A stretch of 64,000 nucleotides of DNA from Megasphaera sp. (GTDB lineage Bacteria > Bacillota > Negativicutes > Veillonellales > Megasphaeraceae). Below the pieces are notes generated by a model. That model had not been told where the DNA came from. It was given only the letters and a program-made list of their open reading frames with translations, and made no database searches. The translations under genes and the position numbers were made by a program. How positions within the stretch are numbered: position 1 is the first letter of the stretch; each line of letters begins with the position of its first letter. The stretch is taken from NCBI GenBank assembly GCA_022641375.1, contig JALCDF010000003.1, positions 363 through 64,362 of the forward strand, written 5' to 3'. Positions 36,310 through 47,736 of this stretch are shown here, one piece after another.

Positions 36310-36441
36310 AAAAACTCCTTGTATTTTTCTTTCATATATTGTATCATATTTTGTATGCTTTTATAAATAAGCCTTGATTTGCTACGACTTTTATGATAAA
36401 ATTTTTATGTTGTACTGTGATGGTGCAGGGAGGTGTAACTA

Positions 36442-36633
36442 ATGGCAAACTATTGCGAAATCTGCGGTAAGGGAACACAAAGCGGCATGAATGTCAGCCA
36501 TTCCCATTTAAAAACGAAAAAAACATGGAAACCGAATATCCAAAGAGTACGTGCTGTCGTAGACGGCGAAGTCAAACGTGTTAACGTTTGCACTCGTTGC
36601 CTTCGTTCTGGCAAAGTACAGCGTGATGTTTAA
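36442..36633 (+). CDS. rpmB: 50S ribosomal protein L28
   Basis: CEICGK...NVSHSH...WKPNIQ...VCTRCLRS; divergent from recG. Confidence 0.98.
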   Translation: MANYCEICGKGTQSGMNVSHSHLKTKKTWKPNIQRVRAVVDGEVKRVNVCTRCLRSGKVQRDV

Positions 36634-36641
36634 TCCCATAT

Positions 36642-36675
36642 AAAAAAAGATGATTCTTTTGAATCATCTTTTTTT
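36642..36675. terminator. Bidirectional terminator (rpmB / three-gene operon)
   Basis: AAAAAAAGATGATTC...GAATCATCTTTTTTT. Confidence 0.85.
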
Positions 36676-36698: not shown

Positions 36699-37796
36699 TT
36701 ACAATCCGTCCTGCCCCACTATGTGGTCGGCAAACGCTGCTGCCCGTTCATGGATTTGATTACAACGTAATATGCTTTTAGGTGCATTAGCTGTTTCCAC
36801 TAACGCAAACCGTCCCGGTAAAATAAAATTTTTATTACAATTCATCGCATCTATGATCTGCTCAGCTACAATATCACCACCGCTATATCCGGACACGATA
36901 AGTCCATACACTTTCTTATCCGCAAACGCTTCTCCTTCTTTACGGAACAATGCTGTCAAGCGGTTAATGAACGCTGTGATATTCGCACTGACAGCATCAT
37001 TGTAATTGGGACAAATAAGAACTAATGCATCACACTGCCGTACCGCCGGATACACTTCATCAACCATGACCCCGCCATAAAAGCAGTCTCCTTTTTCACC
37101 AAAATGAAGACAGGCTTCATAACTGCAGCCACGGCAATCAATGACGGATCCGTTACGCAGTGAAATTTCGTTTACCTGCGCCCGATCTCCGATGGACTGG
37201 CGCACCATTTCCCATAATAATAACGTATTTGATGTCTTGCGGCTCGATGCATGCAAAGCAACAATATATGGCTTTTTCCCCTGGGGGAGAGAGCTTTTTT
37301 TTTGCAACATTTTATCCGTGATTTTTAAAATCAGGCGATGCGCACTCTTTTCATACGCTTCGAACGGATGAATCCCCTGCACCATGGCCTGCGTATTAAA
37401 GTTGTATAAAGAACCGGTCGCTTCAACAAGCGGCTTGCCGGGAAATGAACAGCCAGCCCGATTAGCCATGGACACCATTTCACGGCCCACTTTTTTAGTA
37501 AAGAATTCATCGGGGCCATCTATCATGACGCCTCCCCAGCAGCCTTCAAAGCAATGGTCATTTTGGACTAAAAAGCGCAGAAATCTGGCATATGAAGCAG
37601 TAACCCCCCAGAGTGGCAGCGCCACGGCAAAAAGGATCGCCCTTTCCCCCAATTTATACGTATCCAAAAAAGATAGTAACCCATGCATGGTACTATACGA
37701 TTCATGAGGAACTCCATCTAACGCACTGGCAAGAATAGCATCCATACGCCGCGATTGTTCTGATTCGCTCCAACCGATCCGCACTACTGCTAACAT
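36699..37796 (-). CDS. Two-domain flavodoxin-like / NAD(P)H-FMN reductase family protein with 4-Cys motif
   Basis: C-domain ASSRKTSNT FMN-phosphate loop, CRGCSYEACLHFGEKGDC, PNYNDAVSA, SGYSGG; N-domain looks like a degenerate copy. Confidence 0.75.
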   Translation of the reverse strand: MLAVVRIGWSESEQSRRMDAILASALDGVPHESYSTMHGLLSFLDTYKLGERAILFAVALPLWGVTASYARFLRFLVQNDHCFEGCWGGVMIDGPDEFFTKKVGREMVSMANRAGCSFPGKPLVEATGSLYNFNTQAMVQGIHPFEAYEKSAHRLILKITDKMLQKKSSLPQGKKPYIVALHASSRKTSNTLLLWEMVRQSIGDRAQVNEISLRNGSVIDCRGCSYEACLHFGEKGDCFYGGVMVDEVYPAVRQCDALVLICPNYNDAVSANITAFINRLTALFRKEGEAFADKKVYGLIVSGYSGGDIVAEQIIDAMNCNKNFILPGRFALVETANAPKSILRCNQIHERAAAFADHIVGQDGL

Positions 37797-37812: not shown

Positions 37813-38787
37813 CTAACGAATATTGCATAAATTGCTATATGATTTAACTAACCGGCTGTATAAGGGCCGACATATCGGTTCGTTTTCATAGATGATACCA
37901 TCCGGTCCCATATAGTTTTTAATGCCAAAATACGCACCCCTGCCGGCACTTCCCAGATAAACGGACCCATAATGCCACTGTCCCCGCAACGTCAGCAGGA
38001 TAGACAATGCTGCCGAAGATAACGAGGGTGCAATATACGGCTTATATCCCAGATCACGTATCGCTATATTTGCATGGATAACCTTCTCTGTCAGCATCCG
38101 TGACAAGGTATCATCATAGTGTATCAAACTGTCCGCAATGACCAGGTCCTGACCATGAGGACCGAAAGCACGTCCTTCCGTAAGATACTGATGTATCCGT
38201 TCATCTCTTTCCGCATAGTAACAGGCCCGGGCATTCATGACTCCCAGCCCATATCCCTGTATCTGTGCCGGATGGCAGCCTGACCTGTCAAGAAAAGCTG
38301 CACATAACGGATCTACCGGGTCGGAAACAATGCATACCAACCCCTTATACGATGACTGGCGGGCTAAGGCCGCAAAATGGCCGATAAGGTTCCGGTTTGC
38401 TTCGAGTTGAGCCATACGCACATCGCCTTGCGCCCCCAGGGGAGGAACCCCCTTACTGGCGCAAAAAACGAATACGTCGCAATCAAATAACTGCGCTTCA
38501 TCAATACAATCCACCGGCGGCAACGGCAGATAAGTTCCCCCAAAGGGATACCGGATCTGATTTATTTCCATTTCCAGCCGTTGTGTATTTTGTTTATTAA
38601 TATCACAAATGCCGATAGAACGGATAACATCTCCCCCCAGGAGCCGCAAGCCAATGAGCATCGTCGTGCCCACATCACCCAGCGCCAGGATATGGACCCG
38701 GGCCGGCTTCCGTATCGGATTATGATCTAATGGCAGACCTGCTGTTCCCAATTCGTTGGGCAGATTACTGATATAATATGATTTCAT
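37813..38787 (-). CDS. Divergent lactate/malate dehydrogenase-fold protein
   Basis: HILALGDVG Rossmann loop, ICDIN, VRMAQLEAN, VSDPVD, MNAR, GPHG. Confidence 0.75.
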   Translation of the reverse strand: MKSYYISNLPNELGTAGLPLDHNPIRKPARVHILALGDVGTTMLIGLRLLGGDVIRSIGICDINKQNTQRLEMEINQIRYPFGGTYLPLPPVDCIDEAQLFDCDVFVFCASKGVPPLGAQGDVRMAQLEANRNLIGHFAALARQSSYKGLVCIVSDPVDPLCAAFLDRSGCHPAQIQGYGLGVMNARACYYAERDERIHQYLTEGRAFGPHGQDLVIADSLIHYDDTLSRMLTEKVIHANIAIRDLGYKPYIAPSLSSAALSILLTLRGQWHYGSVYLGSAGRGAYFGIKNYMGPDGIIYENEPICRPLYSRLVKSYSNLCNIR

Positions 38788-38808: not shown

Positions 38809-41800
38809 TTATCTATCCATGCGGTCCGACGACGGGGCCGAATCCATTTCTCCCCAACGCAGCCGCACCAGCCGTTCGATATCATTTTTGATGAACCGCA
38901 CGGGATCCATGTTCTCATCAAATTTAACTCCCACATCGATATCGGGAATACGGGGATATGTAATGACTTCGCCGAGGCGTTTCAACGTAAGACGCCGTTC
39001 ATACGTTTCCTGATACACATCCTGCAACGTTTCCATGATAAGAGCCGCATTCTGCAGGCAGACCAGGGAATACACAAAATCGGTTTCTTCACTGCCGTTG
39101 CCAATAAATGCCGGTTTAACATAGGGTAAAACGAGATTGATGGACGGGTTGGAATCATACCCGCTGTAATTATTCGCATTATCCATGCTGTCACCGCCAA
39201 TAAAGGGATAGCAATCCCGTTCATTGAGCCAAACTTCCAAGGTCGGCAAAAAATAGGCACTTTCTGTCTTAATATTTTTTTCTGCCATCATATCCATCGC
39301 CTGTCCCGTCATGACACCGACGAGTACTTCTTTGATGTTGACATCATTTTTCTTTAAATACGGTGTCAGCATATTCATACGGTGCCCTTTATGAAGCAAA
39401 TCATCAATCAGTATAACCGGGCGATTAAAAGATTTTATCATCTTGACCTGATTTTCTACTGAAGAATAATGATGAGATTCGGCAATCGTAAAACCCTTGA
39501 CCGAGCGGTTAAAGTATTTATCGATATGCAGTGTCTTGGTCACCGTATTGGGTACCAGCACATCACTGAGTGCTTTGCCAAACGGAACCGACATATATGG
39601 CCCCCGCCGCTTCTTTTTATCTTCGACAGTAGATACGCCATTGATTTCTGCCACTTTGTTGATAATTTTATTGTGAACAGCACTCATATTGAACGACAAC
39701 AGCAATTTCCCGGGATAAATATAATTCATGACTGACAATAAATTATCATGAGCCAAATCCAACGCATCCCGGACACGACGATTTTTGTTAAAAGGATTCT
39801 TGATGATTGTTTCTACATCACGGAAAATAACCACCGGTGATTTCATATTCACGGCATACAGAGGATGTGCTGCCCCTCTGGGTGCGATATTGACAAACCC
39901 CTGCATCTGCAAGGCATTGATTATCTTCGTATCATAGCCGCCTTCATCTACCGGTTTGTAAACAACATATGCAAAATCCCGGCCGATAAGTTCCGTCAGC
40001 ACTTCGGTAATCACGATTTGACTGACGTTAGCAATACCGGCATTATCATCGACATACAGAAAGCCGATGCAGGCAACGCTGCCGCCGGCAGCCTCACGAA
40101 TATGGGCTGCTACTTCAGAATCACCGAACTCACTGAGCAATTGCCGCGTGCCGATGCGATGAACCGCAGCATACGCAATCATTTCCTTATGCTGCCCCGC
40201 ATCATCGACATACAGTGTCCATACCCCTTCTCGTTCGATATAGCGATCCAGGATATCCGTATTATACCCTTTATCCCACAAAGTACCGCAAACAGGCCAT
40301 AAGCTTTCCGCACCACGGGGTTTAAAAGCACCGATACCAATTTCCCGTGCTTCCAGTACATGCTTATACGCCGGTTCTCGTAAATAAAGATTATTATCAT
40401 AAATAAAATTTTGGGCTACTGCATCGATAAGATTAGAAATATCCCTGTTCAAATCAATATTTTCACGAATTTTTGTCGAACTGATATCTTCATAAAATTT
40501 ATCCAGTGTCAGGCGAATAACATTTGCCTGGATATGGTATCCCGCTTCATCGCTGCCTTCCCTGTCGCCTTCACTCGTTTCTCGGGCAAAGGCAATATGA
40601 TTCACCGTATGAATGGAATTTTCTGTCGGCTCACTTGTATATGCCGATGCATGGGCAATCACATCCGTCCCGACAGCAATATACAAATCCTTGCCTTCAA
40701 AAATGTCTTTGAGACGTTTCACATCAGCCGGATTGGCGATATTCACAGGAATATCGTCTGGGAACGGATACATGTCTTCTTCGTCAGCCACGGACATATT
40801 CATGATTTTGCGCCGCATCAGCCGCGGCTGCGTGTGTTTGGACCAGGAAAACTCATCCAGGGCCAGATACACATCAAATCCTAAATCACGAATTTTTCTG
40901 GCAACGGCCTTATGCCCCAGACTAAACGGGTCAAAGGTTCCCGGATAAAAACAAGCCTTATTCCTGGCCGGGAAATTGAAATCGCCCGTTTCAAACTGAT
41001 GGCAGCTGATATACCGGTACATATGATTCAATACAGCCGCATTACTATAGAAGTCAAGCAGTCCTTCGGCACTTTCGTCAAGGAGAACCAGTAATTTTTT
41101 ATAACAATGCATAAACAAGAAATCTTTTCGTTCCATCGACATCACCGGACTATTGAATATGAAACGTCCGATATTGCGAAATGCATCCCGGCTTAATTCC
41201 TTGTCATAATGCGCATAGGCTTTAATGATGATATAAAGAAGACGTCGTTGACGCTTTTCATTATTACCATCCTCACTGCCGAATTTACAGGCAAATTCAT
41301 CGAAGTTTTCTAAAATAACCCCAACCGTATGCACCATGGAAGATGCCAGCGCAATATTCACGGTCATGATCTGCGCTTCCATCGTGGCTACAAATTCATC
41401 AAATTCCTGGACAGGAAGTTTTAAAATCATACGTCCCAAAAAATCTGGTACATACTTAGAAATTTGCGGGTCGCCTATTTCCAAGCCATTAAATAATTCT
41501 ACCGCTAATTCATTGCGCTGGGAATATGTCATATATTCAGCAATAGCCAGCAAACTAGCCCCGGCAGTCTGGCGAACGGAGATGGTCTCACTGACTTTAA
41601 GTAAATTAGTCAAATGCATGCCCAGGTGCATGACAGATCCGACATCACTTTTTTTATCCATATAATGCAACATAATTTCGATATTGGCAACTTTAACGAT
41701 CCAATGCGTTCCCATCTTAAGGTCATCAAGGAATAAATTCCCTACCCGGTTGACAAATGATTTGCGATCTGTCGGCAAAGACATAAGCGTCAGTAAATCC

Positions 41801-43662
41801 TGATAATATATGTCATCACCATACCCATCCATGAGATGACGGGCACAGCGTAAAGCCGCTACCCTGACGGGCAATTCCGATGCATCAGCAGCCGCCTGAA
41901 TAAACGACCCGGCCGTTTCCATAAATGTATCATCAATATAGGACCGATCTATATCCATCAGGGTTTTTAACAAAATAATACAGCGTTCCGTCGGATAGTC
42001 CGTATTTCTATAATATTGACGCAATTCTTTCAAATCTTGTTGTTGATCCGGCAAGGAAGCGCCTGCTAATGCTGCCTTAACAAAAAAGCTCAGACAATAC
42101 CCTATCCATATCTTATGCTGCTCCGTATAACGCAAATCCGGATGAATGATCATAGCTGTATAACGGGCAAACAACGATCTGCTGGTAACCGTCCGGGAAG
42201 GCAGAGAAACTCCTTTGGGCAGTTCTTTTGTATAGCGATCATTAAAATCAGCAACGATATGCCCCATGAGCAACGCTGCCTGAATACGGATATCCCCTTC
42301 TTTATGGGACAATAGTTCATAAAGAAATTTCAACGTCATCAGTTTTTGATGTTCTGTCATATACGTAGAATATTCTTCGAAAATGCTAATATATGTCCGC
42401 ACATCCTTCCAGCGTCGTTCGCTGCGGGCCGCTTCAATAAGATTGCCAAAATCACTTTCATCGCGAAAAATACTCATCAGGCGGATATTGTGATCAATAG
42501 CCGCATATTTCAGCTGATCTACAACATCCTCTCTTTCCAGGAGAACTTTTTCTTTGTGAATATAGAAGGGAACATGGTGAGGCGATTCGGCAAAATCTGC
42601 CGGTAATTCGGTAACAACACCTAATTCTTTCATGAAATCTTCAAAATCGGCCAATTTTTCATATACTTTTTGATACCGTTGCTTTTTGGTTTCATCCACA
42701 TTATCAAGTTTCCCCAGAATCACATCAAATGCCTGCGCAAGTGAATAAAAATGGACCACTTCGGCTCCGGTTACCGACCGAGTGCTTTTTACCCGAAAAT
42801 CAGCATAAATAAGCAATAGTGATTCAACAGACAAATTTTCTAATTCCAAATCCCACACAGAATGATTGGCAGCAATGTGCCCGATAGACGGCAAGCCGAC
42901 ACGTTGACAGCATATCCCCGTGTAATAATAATGCAAATAGGGCACTCTTTTTTCTTCATTCTTTTTGCAGCCATATTTACCTATGTCATGACAAGCTGCC
43001 GCTCCGGAAATCAATGCCAAATCCACGGGAACACCAGCTTTGTACAATTGCCTGGCAACATACATCGCTACATAATGGACACCGCCGACATGTCCCAACG
43101 TATTAAATGGCGTAATATCAATGCCTATACGCATGAGCTCATATATATATTGAGCCGCAATAAGGTGGCGCATATGCAGATATTCCCGGCCACATCCCTG
43201 GGAAGCAGCAGCTTCTTCATTCAACAGCCGCATCGTCCGTGTCGGATCAAACGGAAGAATTTTATTTTCAAAATGAAACAATCCCCGCAAAATCTGCAAG
43301 AATATTGCCGCACCCAATTTTTTTTGGGACAGTTCTCTTTTTTCGACTTCATTATTACTTCCACCGGATGGAACAGGAAAAAGCCGCCTCAATATTTTAT
43401 GATAACAATATGCCGGCCATCCTTCGGACGGTTCATCATGCAGACAGGCAATATAGGCCTTGGCCAATTGGCATACTTGCTGTGTTTGGAAGCGGGCACC
43501 AGGATTACGGCTGGCTGCCAAACGGGATGCTAATATACGGATACGGTTTTCACGAATAAACACGGCCATATCTTCTTCATCAAATCCTGCCATGCCAAGA
43601 AAACGACGGTCCTCTAATGCCTTGCATATTTCTTTAAATACTGCCTCTTTTTCATTTCCCAT
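38809..43662 (-). CDS. Large multidomain protein (~1617 aa): HD domain, HEAT-like repeats, NadD-like nucleotidyltransferase, GNAT-like region, PRTase
   Basis: H...ACHDIGK...H...NH...YAD; FYPGTFDPFSLGH, VGTD, ISSTKIR; RPVILIDDLLHKG; start at MGNEK behind GGGGTG. Confidence 0.8.
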   Translation of the reverse strand: MGNEKEAVFKEICKALEDRRFLGMAGFDEEDMAVFIRENRIRILASRLAASRNPGARFQTQQVCQLAKAYIACLHDEPSEGWPAYCYHKILRRLFPVPSGGSNNEVEKRELSQKKLGAAIFLQILRGLFHFENKILPFDPTRTMRLLNEEAAASQGCGREYLHMRHLIAAQYIYELMRIGIDITPFNTLGHVGGVHYVAMYVARQLYKAGVPVDLALISGAAACHDIGKYGCKKNEEKRVPYLHYYYTGICCQRVGLPSIGHIAANHSVWDLELENLSVESLLLIYADFRVKSTRSVTGAEVVHFYSLAQAFDVILGKLDNVDETKKQRYQKVYEKLADFEDFMKELGVVTELPADFAESPHHVPFYIHKEKVLLEREDVVDQLKYAAIDHNIRLMSIFRDESDFGNLIEAARSERRWKDVRTYISIFEEYSTYMTEHQKLMTLKFLYELLSHKEGDIRIQAALLMGHIVADFNDRYTKELPKGVSLPSRTVTSRSLFARYTAMIIHPDLRYTEQHKIWIGYCLSFFVKAALAGASLPDQQQDLKELRQYYRNTDYPTERCIILLKTLMDIDRSYIDDTFMETAGSFIQAAADASELPVRVAALRCARHLMDGYGDDIYYQDLLTLMSLPTDRKSFVNRVGNLFLDDLKMGTHWIVKVANIEIMLHYMDKKSDVGSVMHLGMHLTNLLKVSETISVRQTAGASLLAIAEYMTYSQRNELAVELFNGLEIGDPQISKYVPDFLGRMILKLPVQEFDEFVATMEAQIMTVNIALASSMVHTVGVILENFDEFACKFGSEDGNNEKRQRRLLYIIIKAYAHYDKELSRDAFRNIGRFIFNSPVMSMERKDFLFMHCYKKLLVLLDESAEGLLDFYSNAAVLNHMYRYISCHQFETGDFNFPARNKACFYPGTFDPFSLGHKAVARKIRDLGFDVYLALDEFSWSKHTQPRLMRRKIMNMSVADEEDMYPFPDDIPVNIANPADVKRLKDIFEGKDLYIAVGTDVIAHASAYTSEPTENSIHTVNHIAFARETSEGDREGSDEAGYHIQANVIRLTLDKFYEDISSTKIRENIDLNRDISNLIDAVAQNFIYDNNLYLREPAYKHVLEAREIGIGAFKPRGAESLWPVCGTLWDKGYNTDILDRYIEREGVWTLYVDDAGQHKEMIAYAAVHRIGTRQLLSEFGDSEVAAHIREAAGGSVACIGFLYVDDNAGIANVSQIVITEVLTELIGRDFAYVVYKPVDEGGYDTKIINALQMQGFVNIAPRGAAHPLYAVNMKSPVVIFRDVETIIKNPFNKNRRVRDALDLAHDNLLSVMNYIYPGKLLLSFNMSAVHNKIINKVAEINGVSTVEDKKKRRGPYMSVPFGKALSDVLVPNTVTKTLHIDKYFNRSVKGFTIAESHHYSSVENQVKMIKSFNRPVILIDDLLHKGHRMNMLTPYLKKNDVNIKEVLVGVMTGQAMDMMAEKNIKTESAYFLPTLEVWLNERDCYPFIGGDSMDNANNYSGYDSNPSINLVLPYVKPAFIGNGSEETDFVYSLVCLQNAALIMETLQDVYQETYERRLTLKRLGEVITYPRIPDIDVGVKFDENMDPVRFIKNDIERLVRLRWGEMDSAPSSDRMDR

Positions 43663-43710: not shown

Positions 43711-43737
43711 AAAAAAAGACGCCAATGGCGTCTTTTT
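43711..43737 (-). terminator. Terminator-like hairpin after the PSRP gene
   Basis: AAAAAGACGCCA/TGGCGTCTTTTT. Confidence 0.75.
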
Positions 43738-43750
43738 ATACCATCTGTTT

Positions 43751-44572
43751 TTATTCTTTGTAGAGCTCTTTATTTCTCTTGACGATTTCTAAAACCAGAT
43801 TAGCTGTTTCTTCAATTGCTTTAGACGATACGTCAACAATGGGACAATGAAGCCGGCGCATAACACCACGAGCATATGTCAATTCTTCGTTGATGCGTTC
43901 AATATTGGCATAACTCGCATTGGAATCCAATCCCATACTGCGAAGACGTTCCGACCGGATAAAGTTCAATTTAAACGGATCAATGATCAGGCCGACGATT
44001 TTACGAGCCGGTACCTGAAATAATTCCGGCGGCAGGGGTACTTCCGGTACCAAAGGCAAATTAGCCGCTTTGACTCGTTTATGAGCCAGATACATAGATA
44101 ATGGCGTTTTCGATGTCCGGGATACGCCGACAATGACAATGTCTGCCTGAAGAAATCCCATGGGGTTTTTACCATCATCAAATTTAACGGCAAATTCAAT
44201 AGCCTCTACCCGTTTGAAATAATCTTCATCAAGCTGGTGGATCATACCGGCTTTCATGGTAGGATCCGTTGATGTCAGGTTCCCGATACCTTCCAGCATG
44301 GGCCCGATAATATCTACTACAACCACATCGGTATCAGCCGTCAAATCTTTTAACTTCCGCCGTAATACCGGTGAAATAATGGTGTAACAAATCATCGATT
44401 GATTTTCTCTTGCTTTTTTTACTATATCTTCAATTTGTTGCTCCGACCGGATATAGGGGATGCGGACGATATTGAACTTTTCCTTATCGTACTGGCTGGC
44501 TGCGGCACGAGCTACGCGTTCAGCCGTCTCACCGAGAGAATCGGAGCAGGCATAAATAATAGGTATTGACAC
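43751..44572 (-). CDS. PEP synthase / PPDK regulatory kinase-pyrophosphorylase (DUF299, YqfL-like)
   Basis: SDSLGETAE, YFKRVEAIEFAVKFDDG, GVSRTSKTP, AIEETA. Confidence 0.95.
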   Translation of the reverse strand: MSIPIIYACSDSLGETAERVARAAASQYDKEKFNIVRIPYIRSEQQIEDIVKKARENQSMICYTIISPVLRRKLKDLTADTDVVVVDIIGPMLEGIGNLTSTDPTMKAGMIHQLDEDYFKRVEAIEFAVKFDDGKNPMGFLQADIVIVGVSRTSKTPLSMYLAHKRVKAANLPLVPEVPLPPELFQVPARKIVGLIIDPFKLNFIRSERLRSMGLDSNASYANIERINEELTYARGVMRRLHCPIVDVSSKAIEETANLVLEIVKRNKELYKE

Positions 44573-44573
44573 G

Positions 44574-45215
44574 TTATGTTCTCCTTCCTAATCCACATTC
44601 TACAAATAAGCGTGTAATATTTGTCTTAGAAATCCTGCCAACAATCTGTAACTCTTTTCGATCTTCTTCCTCTGTATCTAACAGATTTACAACAGGCAGG
44701 CAATCCACTTCATATTCTATCATACGTTGTGCTGCTACAAGAGCCTTTTCATCTGGCCTGACATATATCAATTTACTTGCCGGAGTCATCACCATACGGA
44801 CAGGCAATGCCCGTAAATCATTATGTCCCATCGCTGTCTTCAGCAAATCCTTACGGGATACTACACCAGCCATGATATTATTGGTACCAACAAATACAGT
44901 ACCTACATCTTCTGTAAACATGGCAATGATTGCATCATATGCACTAGTGTGTTCTCCTACAATGACCGGCTGTGACAAACATGATTCTATGCTGATATCG
45001 GTAATAGCCCGCAACAGTACATCTTTTTCTTTATGTCCTGTATAAAAATACCCCAGTTTGGGTCGGGCATCAATGAGTTCCAACATTGTCAAAATAGCTA
45101 AATCCGACCTCAACGCCGCCCGGGTCACATGCAGCCGGTCCGCAATATGCTGACCGGTTATGGGACTATTTTCTCTTACGATCCGTAAAATTGTTTCCTG
45201 CCGTTCGGATAACAT
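44574..45215 (-). CDS. ccpN: CcpN-like HTH-CBS transcriptional repressor
   Basis: PITGQHIA...RAALRSDLAILTM...ARPKLGY, CBS pair, GRISKTNI; coupled to the DUF299 gene. Confidence 0.88.
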   Translation of the reverse strand: MLSERQETILRIVRENSPITGQHIADRLHVTRAALRSDLAILTMLELIDARPKLGYFYTGHKEKDVLLRAITDISIESCLSQPVIVGEHTSAYDAIIAMFTEDVGTVFVGTNNIMAGVVSRKDLLKTAMGHNDLRALPVRMVMTPASKLIYVRPDEKALVAAQRMIEYEVDCLPVVNLLDTEEEDRKELQIVGRISKTNITRLFVECGLGRRT

Positions 45216-45336
45216 ATGTTTTCACCTCCCAGCGTTTTCCTAATGTCGTCTTATATAATAATATCATTATATCACCCATAATAAAAGGCGGCCAAAAATA
45301 ACTGCTATATTTTTGACCGCCCTCCTTATTTATTAT

Positions 45337-47736
45337 TTACCATGTATAATCTTCCGTATCTGCACGGCCTTTTCCTGTAAGAGAATCCATTAAGATGCGC
45401 TGTTCGATTTGTGCTACATTTTTACGTGTAGCTACGACTGCATCAGGATTAACGGATACAGAATCAATGCCACTCTTGATAAGGAATTCGGTGAAATCCG
45501 GATATACGCTCGGAGCCTGACCGCAAATAGAAACGGTCTTGCCATCTTTATGAGCAACGGCGATTAAATGACGAATAGCTCTCTTCACTGCCAGATTACG
45601 TTCATCAAACAATGGTGCTACTGTATCATTATCACGGTCACAACCCATGATCAGCATCGTCAAATCATTAGAACCAATGGAATATCCATCGACGAATTGA
45701 TTGAACTGATCTGCTAAAATAATATTGGACGGAATTTCTGCCATCAGCCATACCTTGAAGTCCGGACTGCGATGCAATCCTTCGTTGGCCATAATGCCTA
45801 CAATCTTTTGCATTTCGTCAACACGGCGGCAGAATGGAATCATTACATTGAGGTTTTTAAAACCATATTCTTCACGAACTTTTTGTACTGCCTTGATTTC
45901 CAGTTTGAACGCTTCCATATATTTAGGATCATAATACCGGGAAGCACCCCGCCATCCCAGAAGTGCGCTGCTTTCCTGCGGTTCGTATTTATCGCCGCCT
46001 TTAAGGTTGCGGTATTCACTGGATTTAAAATCACTGAACCGTAAGGTAACCGGACGCGGAGCCAACGCCTGGCATACTTTACGCATGCCATCGGCAAGCT
46101 GGTCTACGACCCGTTCCGGATGGCCTATTTCAATCAAATACAGCGGATGTTCATGAATGAATGTCGTCCAGATAAATTCTTCACGCATAAGGCCGATGCC
46201 ATCACACGGAAGTTTACCATATTTTTCAGCCAGATCCGGATTACCCAGATTCATATAAATCTTAGTACCCGTAATCGGAGCCGCTTCTGCCGCTACGACT
46301 GTCGCACCTGCCGCTGCCGGCGCTGCTGGTTTGACAATATCTTCTACGATTCCTTCATATACGATACCATTGGTCGCATCAACGGTGATTTCCATACCAT
46401 CCGTAATCGTCGTCGTCGCTTCTGTACTACGGCTCTTCGTCCCAACGATACAAGGAATACCGAGTTCACGGCTGACGATAGATGCATGACACGTCATACC
46501 ACCGGCATCGGTTACAATCGCTTTGGCTTTCTTCATCGCCGGTACCCAGTCAGGTGCCGTCATCGTCGTCACCAGGATTTCCCCATCATTGAATTCTTCA
46601 ATTCTGCTGGGATCCAGGATAATATGTGCCTTGCCGGCTGCATGACCCGGACTTGCCGGCAGCCCTTTAACAACAATTTTACGGTCGGTTGTAACAGCCT
46701 TGCCCAGGGTATCCGCCGAATCGGAAGATTTCTTTTCTTTATTCTTTCTGGACCAAACCGTTTCAGGCCGGGCCTGGAGGAGCCAAATCTTATCTGTCCG
46801 TTCGTCAACGCCCCATTCCATATCCATGTAACAGCCATAATGCTTTTCAATCGCTTTCGCATAGGACGCCAGTTCTTTGACCTGTTCATCCGATATGACC
46901 TGTTTTTTTTGATCATCTACAGGTACCAGCTGTTCTTCACAATCTCCACCGGGTTTACGAACCAGTTTTACCGGTTTGGTATTGATCATTTTAGAAATAA
47001 TAGACAAATCATCTTTCTTTACTTTGAAGTTATCCGGTGTAACAGTTCCCTGTACGACATATTCGCCAAGACCCCAGGCACCTTCAATCGTAATCGTCGA
47101 ATCATCGCCGGTTACCAGATCAACGGTAAACATGACACCTGCTGCCTTAGAAAATACCATCATCTGTACTGCCGCACTCAGGGCAACCTGCAGATGATCG
47201 AATCCCTTTTTCGTACGATAGTATGTTGCCCGGTCCGTAAAGGTCGACGCATAACATTCCTTGACTTTTTGAATGACCATATCCGGTCCCTGGACATTCA
47301 AATATGTATCCTGCTGGCCGGCGAAGCTGGCATCGGGAAGGTCTTCCGCCGTAGCGCTGGAACGCACGGCAACAAACGGATTATCTTCGCCTACTTTTTT
47401 ACCTAATTCAATATAGCCCTGACGAATCGCATCGGCCAAATCCTTTGGCATGTCAACACTGCAAATCGCTTCACGAATGGCCGCTGTTACATTGCGCAAT
47501 TGAACCGGATCTTCCACATCCGTCAAGCCTTTCAGCAATTCCTTGATTTTTAAATCCATGCCCGTTTCATGCATAAAATGGCGATACCCTTCGGCTGTCG
47601 TAGCAAAACCATACGGAACCGGTACATCCGTCTTTGAAGTCAGTTCCCCCAAAGAAGAGGACTTGCCGCCGACGAGAGCTACATCTGCCCGGCGTAATTC
47701 ATCAAACCATAATACATATGCTTTATTTCTGTCCAT
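45337..47736 (-). CDS. ppsA: Phosphoenolpyruvate synthase (pyruvate, water dikinase)
   Basis: VAVRSSATAEDLPDASFAGQQDT, QARPETV, GGMTCHASIVSRE phospho-His, SIGSNDLT, SICGQAPS. Confidence 0.96.
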   Translation of the reverse strand: MDRNKAYVLWFDELRRADVALVGGKSSSLGELTSKTDVPVPYGFATTAEGYRHFMHETGMDLKIKELLKGLTDVEDPVQLRNVTAAIREAICSVDMPKDLADAIRQGYIELGKKVGEDNPFVAVRSSATAEDLPDASFAGQQDTYLNVQGPDMVIQKVKECYASTFTDRATYYRTKKGFDHLQVALSAAVQMMVFSKAAGVMFTVDLVTGDDSTITIEGAWGLGEYVVQGTVTPDNFKVKKDDLSIISKMINTKPVKLVRKPGGDCEEQLVPVDDQKKQVISDEQVKELASYAKAIEKHYGCYMDMEWGVDERTDKIWLLQARPETVWSRKNKEKKSSDSADTLGKAVTTDRKIVVKGLPASPGHAAGKAHIILDPSRIEEFNDGEILVTTMTAPDWVPAMKKAKAIVTDAGGMTCHASIVSRELGIPCIVGTKSRSTEATTTITDGMEITVDATNGIVYEGIVEDIVKPAAPAAAGATVVAAEAAPITGTKIYMNLGNPDLAEKYGKLPCDGIGLMREEFIWTTFIHEHPLYLIEIGHPERVVDQLADGMRKVCQALAPRPVTLRFSDFKSSEYRNLKGGDKYEPQESSALLGWRGASRYYDPKYMEAFKLEIKAVQKVREEYGFKNLNVMIPFCRRVDEMQKIVGIMANEGLHRSPDFKVWLMAEIPSNIILADQFNQFVDGYSIGSNDLTMLIMGCDRDNDTVAPLFDERNLAVKRAIRHLIAVAHKDGKTVSICGQAPSVYPDFTEFLIKSGIDSVSVNPDAVVATRKNVAQIEQRILMDSLTGKGRADTEDYTW

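Follow-up and report, generated by a model that had tools for sequence, protein, structure and literature searches.

A five-domain giant protein of Megasphaera sp. with a new architecture and a tentatively predicted role as a make-and-break nucleotide switch

We identified, in Megasphaera sp., a three-gene operon headed by a giant gene whose product combines five modules in one chain. The operon lies on the minus strand of contig JALCDF010000003.1 (assembly GCA_022641375.1), within positions 363 to 64,362; this whole stretch of 64,000 nucleotides is referred to below as the window, and all features of the operon are given in its coordinates and on its minus strand. The giant gene (38809..43662) is a single open frame for a protein of 1617 amino acids (aa) in which motifs and the scoring of homologues revealed, from the N- to the C-terminus, an HD domain, a HEAT-repeat scaffold, a NadD-like nucleotidyltransferase (NTase), a GNAT-like domain and a phosphoribosyltransferase-like (PRTase-like) domain. 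Although the single domains are all known, we rate the system as categorically new in its architecture, since none of the families considered (NadD, YqeK, GlnD/Rel, classical GNATs and lactate dehydrogenase, LDH) accommodated it by its defining tests; the function proposed for it is a prediction. Our favoured reading, held with something short of even confidence, is that the giant protein may be a switchable enzyme of the Rel/GlnD style, which makes and breaks a nucleotide product, with metabolic sensors that would adjust the balance between the two activities, possibly at the glutamate/2-oxoglutarate node. The folds, conserved residues, operon and distribution were read directly from the data, and from these we infer all reactions, ligands and targets. 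The open full-text literature searched (main articles) gave no paper on the five-domain architecture.

A ribosome-binding site (GGGGTG) is placed 6 nt 5' of the ATG of the giant gene, the base composition of the gene is that of the window, and the identical protein sequence is present in two protein collections. The scoring of 7992 candidates yielded 2711 homologous matches, the nearest named ones being from Megasphaera (72-85% identity), while a single-sequence search of the PDB gave no match. Conservation was assessed in 127 sequences of less than 70% identity, filtered from 335. In databases the protein is named nicotinate-nucleotide adenylyltransferase, and we regard such labels (ordinary NAD enzyme or cytidyltransferase) as wrong. 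An earlier note, made from the letters of this DNA, had proposed a five-module protein of 1617 aa, and all of its modules gained support: the NadD and GNAT folds from a confident structural model, and the HD, HEAT and PRTase domains from family profiles. The motifs it quoted were found where it had placed them (H225-D226 at 42990-42985, PGTFDPFSLGH at residues 907-917, ALQMQGFV at 1250-1257 and RPVILIDDLLHKG at 1414-1426). It was thus right about the domain architecture, but the two partner genes of the operon had been missed.

The NadD-fold nucleotidyltransferase (residues 900-1100; 40363..40965) was defined by modelling, fold search and conservation, and it has kept its ATP side and changed its acceptor side. 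In a model of residues 893-1606 built from 64 aligned sequences (pLDDT 85.7, pTM 0.84), the NTase, GNAT and PRTase domains pack as a single unit, and residues 900-1096 match the NadD fold with Z scores of 17.1-17.8 (rmsd 2.6-3.3 A over 170-188 residues). The ATP-side motifs of NadD, (T/H)xGH, GxD and SSTxxR, are present and nearly invariant, with H917 kept in 126/127 sequences and K942, D1000, R1027 and R1066 in all 127; position 916 is Gly in 64/127 and Ser in 61/127. Little weight can be given to the SxGH form of the first motif, which had been noted earlier as an unusual substitution; it is no sign of decay, because solved NadDs carry TYAH (5llt) or HTAH (2h29). As judged from an alignment with the NadD of the same genome, it is the acceptor side that has really changed, with NIA in place of SYT and Tyr1008 in place of Trp, which predicts a pocket unlike that of NadD; we take the (S)YT motif and the stacking Trp to be the nicotinate-binding elements of NadD. 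The conservation pattern indicates strong selection on the catalytic sites of both the NTase and the HD domain.

The score of the giant protein against the NadD profile TIGR00482 was 31.6 bits, below the cut-off of 112, and the giants of five relatives reached 40-51 bits. A housekeeping nadD-yqeK pair with overlapping genes is present elsewhere in the Megasphaera sp. genome, so the giant is not the housekeeping NadD, and a separate NadD scoring above the cut-off was found in all five other carriers tested. The possibility that the earlier note had named as fatal to its proposal, a plain NadD with inert extra regions, therefore fits poorly with a protein which scores below the cut-off and whose other domains are strongly conserved.

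The HD domain (residues 131-350; 42613..43272) is, according to profiles and conservation, of the dimetal type. Its ligands H191, H225, D226, H244 and D288 were kept in 127/127 sequences and H267 in 126/127, and passages of PMC8177086 describe such a six-ligand pattern (H..HD..H..H..D) as a dinuclear HD site. The same passages give HH in polynuclear HD phosphodiesterases where the giant family has NH, and for HD phosphohydrolases an Arg placed three positions ahead of the first His. The giant protein has neither marker: the HD-GYP/PgpH motif H..HD..H..HH..D is replaced by N266-H267 (Asn in 126/127), position 188 is occupied by Thr instead of the Arg, and PDB matches to the polynuclear phosphodiesterases (HD-GYP, PgpH) were weak (E 0.4-1). 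Because the dinuclear ligand pattern is kept and these two markers are replaced, the domain is likely to be active, yet it fits neither the phosphodiesterase nor the phosphohydrolase class cleanly. The proposal that it resembles YqeK was not borne out by the profile searches: only 2/65 members matched the YqeK profile TIGR00488 (best E 0.024), compared with 64/65 for the HD part of NF045665 (DVU_1551 family) and 42/65 for TIGR00295. The nearest relatives of the domain would thus be found in the DVU_1551/TIGR00295 clade, and the genuine yqeK stands beside nadD elsewhere in the genome.

The HEAT-repeat solenoid (residues 386-892; 40987..42507), which contains conserved polar residues, was likewise assigned from profiles and conservation, with PF02985 matched by 35/57 members. 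Folding of residues 1-900 without an alignment was uninformative (pLDDT 42.7), hence both the HD and the HEAT assignments rely on profiles rather than on a model.

The GNAT-fold domain (residues 1106-1275; 39838..40347), identified by fold search and conservation, had been the weakest call of the earlier note, but residues 1107-1275 proved to match GNATs (Z 13.8, rmsd 3.0 over 150 residues). It is the least conserved of the enzyme-like domains of the giant, and the acetyl-CoA loop (R/QxxGxG/A) is absent after its fourth strand. The type I PRTase-like domain (residues 1310-1495, with the motifs VPFGK, PNTVTK and DDLLHKGxR) and its C-terminal extension span 38833..39735 and were recognized from profiles and conservation: PF00156 was matched by 32/56 members (best E 2.5e-5), and 17 of 18 matches in a PDB profile search were PRTase-fold proteins, albeit weak ones (E 0.007-2.6). 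The matches listed in fold searches with the three-domain model were filled by NadD and GNAT proteins, so that the PRTase call relies on profiles and the beta-alpha pattern of the model; its absence from those matches is not counter-evidence. The structure prediction proposed as a check thus recovered two of the folds, NadD and GNAT, and the PRTase fold was missing among the matches listed. In the loop which would bind phosphoribosyl pyrophosphate (PRPP), the acidic residues are well kept (D1420 in 127/127, D1421 in 118/127), and they are followed by H/N-K-G-x-R instead of x-T-G-x-T. The HKG loop is not a decayed motif, contrary to what had been suggested, since no other motif is retained as well in distant relatives. 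Part of PMC8789054 describes a precedent, PurR, in which a catalytically silent PRTase domain senses PRPP and ppGpp. The suspicion of a non-standard substrate or of regulatory domains is broadly upheld, partly for reasons other than those originally given. In the main clade, near-invariant positions amount to 0.24-0.25 in the HD and NTase domains vs 0.15 in the PRTase-like domain.

Two partner genes follow the giant gene. The first (37813..38787, starting 21 nt 3' of the giant gene) encodes a 324-aa protein of the lactate/malate dehydrogenase (LDH/MDH) fold with a remodelled site, and the second (36699..37796, starting 16 nt 3' of the LDH-like gene) a 365-aa flavodoxin-fold (FMN_red) protein. 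Among 143 loci with at least 3 kb of downstream DNA, the LDH-like gene was present in 129 and the flavoprotein gene in 124; the former was also found in 20/20 further Lachnospiraceae loci. The LDH-like protein matches LDH/MDH structures in the PDB (E 9e-13) but scores only 31 bits against the curated L-lactate/malate dehydrogenase family, whose cut-off is 304. It has kept R124 and R187 (144/144) and H211 (142/144), and carries D156 for the Asn of the NP motif and M184 for the catalytic Asp (both 144/144), together with Lys249 (141/144), which presumably corresponds to Thr246 of LDH. The flavoprotein matches PF03358 (FMN_red, E 1e-18), had no match in a PDB profile search, and has four Cys residues (C221, C224, C229 and C238) that are invariant in 133/133 sequences with the spacing CX2CX4CX8C; the compact four-Cys motif of the iron-sulfur flavoprotein Isf is CX2CX2CX4-7C. 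A complex prediction for the LDH-like protein, the flavoprotein and HEAT residues 640-895 scored 0.00, which gives no verdict and weighs neither way.

The operon appears to be bounded by two terminator-like hairpins, both read by eye: one between ppsR and the giant gene (43711..43737), which is not in the list of the promoter and terminator scan, and one closing the three-gene operon (36642..36675). The counts of that scan were at chance level. When 103 leaders were scanned for seven regulator sites, none stood clearly above shuffled sequences, the best being CodY (19 vs 11). Nor was any transporter, base-synthesis gene or client enzyme conserved with the operon in the surveyed loci.

The distribution of the giant gene is closely tied to that of its partner. 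In the order of Anaerovorax, which we take to be Peptostreptococcales, the giant was found in 76/121 genomes and the LDH-like gene in 77/121, with both in 76; the LDH-like gene thus accompanies 76/76 carriers vs 1/45 non-carriers. The giant is rarer elsewhere (4/121 and 22/391 Lachnospiraceae genomes; 13 strong matches among 401 genomes of a phylum sample). Carriers include Megasphaera, Acidaminococcus, Anaerovorax, Sedimentibacter, Oscillibacter, Alkaliphilus, Caloramator and Atribacterota, presumably amino-acid fermenters for the most part. Where no LDH-like gene could be detected, the giant itself is split, eroded or devoid of the HD domain. Among five solo loci tested, two Mogibacterium genomes yielded no LDH-like gene; the giant of one of them is split, and a third Mogibacterium giant has lost His917. 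The Mogibacterium giants (L053:9986-15281 and L050) come either in two pieces (858 + 913 aa) or with an eroded NTase, and their partners do not adjoin. Six second copies of the giant in Peptostreptococcales (L109, L111, L113, L126, L133 and L135) are without partners; five of these lie just 3' of a panB-like gene, and two (L109 and L126) have lost one HD ligand. The genes around giant loci are housekeeping genes, and a search for a mobile or defence origin gave 0 phage records, 0 PADLOC hits for the three proteins and a single "plasmid" record of 2.6 Mb. The latter (NZ_CP154629.1, a 2.63-Mb record of Acetoanaerobium noterae) bears the operon among housekeeping genes and is probably a chromosome. 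A link with selenium was rejected, as selD was present in 100/121 genomes, including many non-carriers, and missing in some carriers (e.g. G401).

Distant relatives were taken from the best 150 of the 341 matches of a profile search with the PRTase domain, and these include HD-less proteins of 1050-1310 aa. One of them, P0503, comes with 29 cluster members on contigs of up to 178 kb; among the 15 listed, 14 are of 1065 aa. The N-terminus of P0503, used as a query, found only itself at E 1e-20. Whole HD-less giant genes occur in five genomes, in which the HD profile and the LDH-like profile each matched 0/5, these being incomplete genomes of one clade. All five HD-less giants with upstream DNA abut a PPDK_N gene (750-880 aa), which stands in place of the LDH-like and flavoprotein partners. 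The NTase is eroded (3-10 of 15 residues) in 10/16 HD-less sequences, and the other six, some of which may be fragments, keep all 15 residues. Two HD-less proteins, P0454 and P0456, lack most of the GNAT domain and have intact NTase and PRTase motifs. Among the 72 full-length distant relatives, the HD ligands are lost in seven, three of which keep 13-15 of 15 NTase residues, and another seven have kept the HD domain with only 7-11 of 15 NTase residues; the two sites therefore decay both jointly and separately. Retention among 88 distant relatives was 88 for Q1405, 87 for G1362 and 86 for D1420, and the PRTase triad is retained in 74, ahead of the NTase triad (67) and the HD triad (65), a lead which is partly built in, because the set was found with a PRTase-domain profile.

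A possible target is suggested by the NADP-glutamate dehydrogenase gene (gdhA), which was found near the giant in 20/222 loci in four arrangements. It is upstream and divergent in Anaerovoracaceae; in Lachnospiraceae it lies downstream, behind a two-component pair of the YcbB type and gltS; in L177 and L178 it follows the giant directly; and in L254 it directly precedes the giant, gltS being downstream. By comparison, with Megasphaera loci excluded, alsT was found in 3 loci and five control genes from the window in 0-1 (some controls are not universal). In L064, a PPDK_N gene next to the giant is flanked by gdhA on both sides, and in a separate search the PPDK_N family adjoined gdhA in 3/4 best matches. 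The open literature searched, which includes part of PMC5552732, contained nothing on a link between PPDK_N and gdhA. This ATP-grasp family (750-1050 aa, no other Pfam match; L248, L249, L251-L253, L257-L260 and L064:4884-8024) has an N-terminus which we believe to be RecA/KaiC-like, and it could represent a kinase-like protein, unstudied so far, that regulates glutamate dehydrogenase. We consider the connection of the giant with glutamate a lead and not a result.

Comparison with known systems helps to delimit what is new. With NadD/NMNAT (5llt, 2h29, 6buv) the giant shares the fold over approximately 180 residues, the second His of HxGH, GxD, the Arg and SSTxxR, but it differs in NIA for SYT, Tyr for Trp, an invariant DEFSWSK loop and its 1617-aa chain. 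NadD-YqeK fusions or pairs (PRK07152; JCVI-syn3A 0380) also unite a dimetal HD hydrolase with a NadD-fold adenylyltransferase; in the giant, however, the HD is N-terminal, 550 residues away and of the DVU_1551/TIGR00295 clade, and there are three extra domains and two partner genes. The DVU_1551 NTP transferase (NF045665) has the nearest HD, which is also fused to a nucleotidyltransferase, but only its HD part matches the giant (22 bits vs a cut-off of 315). Rel/SpoT and GlnD combine an HD hydrolase, a nucleotidyltransferase and ligand-sensing domains in one chain; the giant resembles them in logic only, having a NadD-type transferase where theirs is of the polymerase-beta type, and no ACT or TGS match in Pfam. 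Firmicute PurR combines the PRTase fold, predicted also for the giant, with an Asp-Asp loop followed by non-canonical residues, which the giant has as well; in the giant, no DNA-binding domain was detected with Pfam and ligand binding is predicted. Finally, the citrate lyase ligase CitC carries a GNAT fold fused to a HIGH-type nucleotidyltransferase; the giant has the same kind of fusion, but in the reverse domain order and with a GNAT that lacks the CoA loop, and no CitC match appeared in the profile or fold searches.

The make-and-break reading is preferred because two opposed conserved sites, two ligand-binding folds whose loops are non-canonical, a scaffold and two redox-type partners can all be fitted into it. 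The NadD-like domain, with ATP, would transfer an adenylyl group to some acceptor (a nucleotide, or a group bound to a protein) that is not nicotinate mononucleotide, and the dimetal HD domain would cleave the adenylylated product. The PRTase-like domain could, like PurR, bind a purine nucleotide or PRPP and together with the GNAT fold and the HEAT scaffold tilt the balance, while the LDH-like protein, as a putative NAD(H)-binding protein, and the putative FMN/Fe-S protein would report 2-oxoacid and redox status. In the weakest step, glutamate dehydrogenase or its regulation would be the likeliest target. A more explicit version seems to us unlikely as a whole: a nucleotide-signalling or protein-adenylylation switch in which the NadD fold writes a mark and the HD domain erases it, PRPP or purine, 2-oxoacid and redox signals are read, glutamate dehydrogenase is controlled, and PPDK_N serves as an alternative input in HD-less lineages. 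If a make-and-break switch of this kind does exist, it would constitute a new nucleotide signal or modification in gut and digester anaerobes and would explain how they balance their glutamate, nucleotide and redox state.

Several observations weigh against this preferred reading. The HD and NTase domains are not strictly coupled in distant relatives, and the PRTase-like loop persists in variants that have lost both catalytic sites, in which a pure sensor of those sites would be needless. P-II was not found in one of the four carriers tested, and a strict link with P-II/GlnD was therefore rejected. The scan of 103 leaders revealed no common upstream motif. As to glutamate, gdhA was nearby in 0/40 Peptostreptococcales and 1/20 Lachnospiraceae loci, the gdhA of the Megasphaera sp. 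genome itself is on another contig, and adjacency was seen in only 3/25 lineages at the 55% level (before L254 was added); related loci are moreover not independent, which limits the gdhA counts. In one clade, rubrerythrin-perR is an equally frequent neighbour (approximately 12/20 Lachnospiraceae loci).

Other explanations draw on the same data. The giant might be an assembly line for a NAD-like dinucleotide, in which the PRTase couples PRPP with a base, the resulting product is adenylylated by the NadD-like domain and the HD domain proofreads, with the LDH-like protein and the flavoprotein making the base or using the cofactor. The retained acidic pair of the PRPP loop (D1420 in 127/127, D1421 in 118/127), the rigid unit of PRTase and NTase seen in the model, the aromatic stacking position kept as Tyr1008 and the invariant substitutions in the LDH-like site, which suggest a new substrate, are all in its favour, as is the precedent of YqeK proofreading for NadD, given in a portion of 10.1101/2021.12.01.470718. 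However, the PRTase loop is kept while the NTase decays in 10/16 HD-less sequences (one clade), no transporter, base-synthesis gene or client enzyme co-travels, and the 500-residue HEAT scaffold is left unexplained, which makes this scheme somewhat unlikely; were it true, it would point to a NAD-like cofactor not yet known. A third possibility places the real output in the C-terminal PRTase-like unit, as an enzyme or a binding module that acts on a partner such as glutamate dehydrogenase, and treats the HD, NTase and partner genes as exchangeable regulatory inputs; it would account for the exchange of the LDH-like and flavoprotein genes for PPDK_N in HD-less loci and for the better retention of the PRTase triad (74/88 vs 67 and 65). 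Since the latter is partly a product of the search profile and, in the main clade, the PRTase is less well conserved than the HD and NTase, we consider this possibility rather unlikely.

A system of NAD(H) repair or stress response in strict anaerobes, in which damaged dinucleotides would be cut by the HD domain and rebuilt by the NadD-like domain, and aberrant reduced forms re-oxidised by the LDH-like protein and the putative Fe-S flavoprotein, would suit two redox-type partners and such neighbours as rubrerythrin-perR, an NAD(P)HX repair gene (six loci) and NiaR-type 3H regulators (two). Each of these neighbours was seen in one to three lineages, the pocket for nicotinate has changed, and the PRTase and GNAT domains would be without a role; such a function thus appears improbable. 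Least credible is a plain second NadD or NadD-YqeK with inert extras, or an anti-phage defence gene, despite the database name of nicotinate-nucleotide adenylyltransferase and the patchy distribution. A score of 31.6 bits vs 112, a true NadD elsewhere in the genome and strong selection on the other domains contradict the former, and the latter is countered by the lack of PADLOC and phage matches, a base composition equal to that of the window and the housekeeping neighbours; we regard both as very improbable.

Some further neighbours of the giant gene should be mentioned. Reverse rubrerythrin, mostly with a perR-like gene, is placed divergently upstream in the approximately 12/20 Lachnospiraceae loci already mentioned (within L232-L246), NiaR-type 3H regulators adjoin the giant in L042 and L044, and NAD(P)HX repair genes do so in L064, L066, L068, L195, L198 and L199. 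In one clade (L048, L058, L069 and L077) the operon has as its neighbour a gene for type III glutamine synthetase, in most cases accompanied by genes for asparagine synthase and CTP synthase. The genes ppsA-ccpN-ppsR (43751-47736, minus strand) immediately precede the giant, in the same orientation, in Megasphaera-type loci only; the hairpin described above separates them from it, and the coincidence of this adjacency with the PPDK_N link is possibly fortuitous. At the other end, a short open reading frame (approximately 36441-36632, plus strand) between the flavoprotein gene and recG converges on the operon terminator, and its product presumably resembles ribosomal protein L28.

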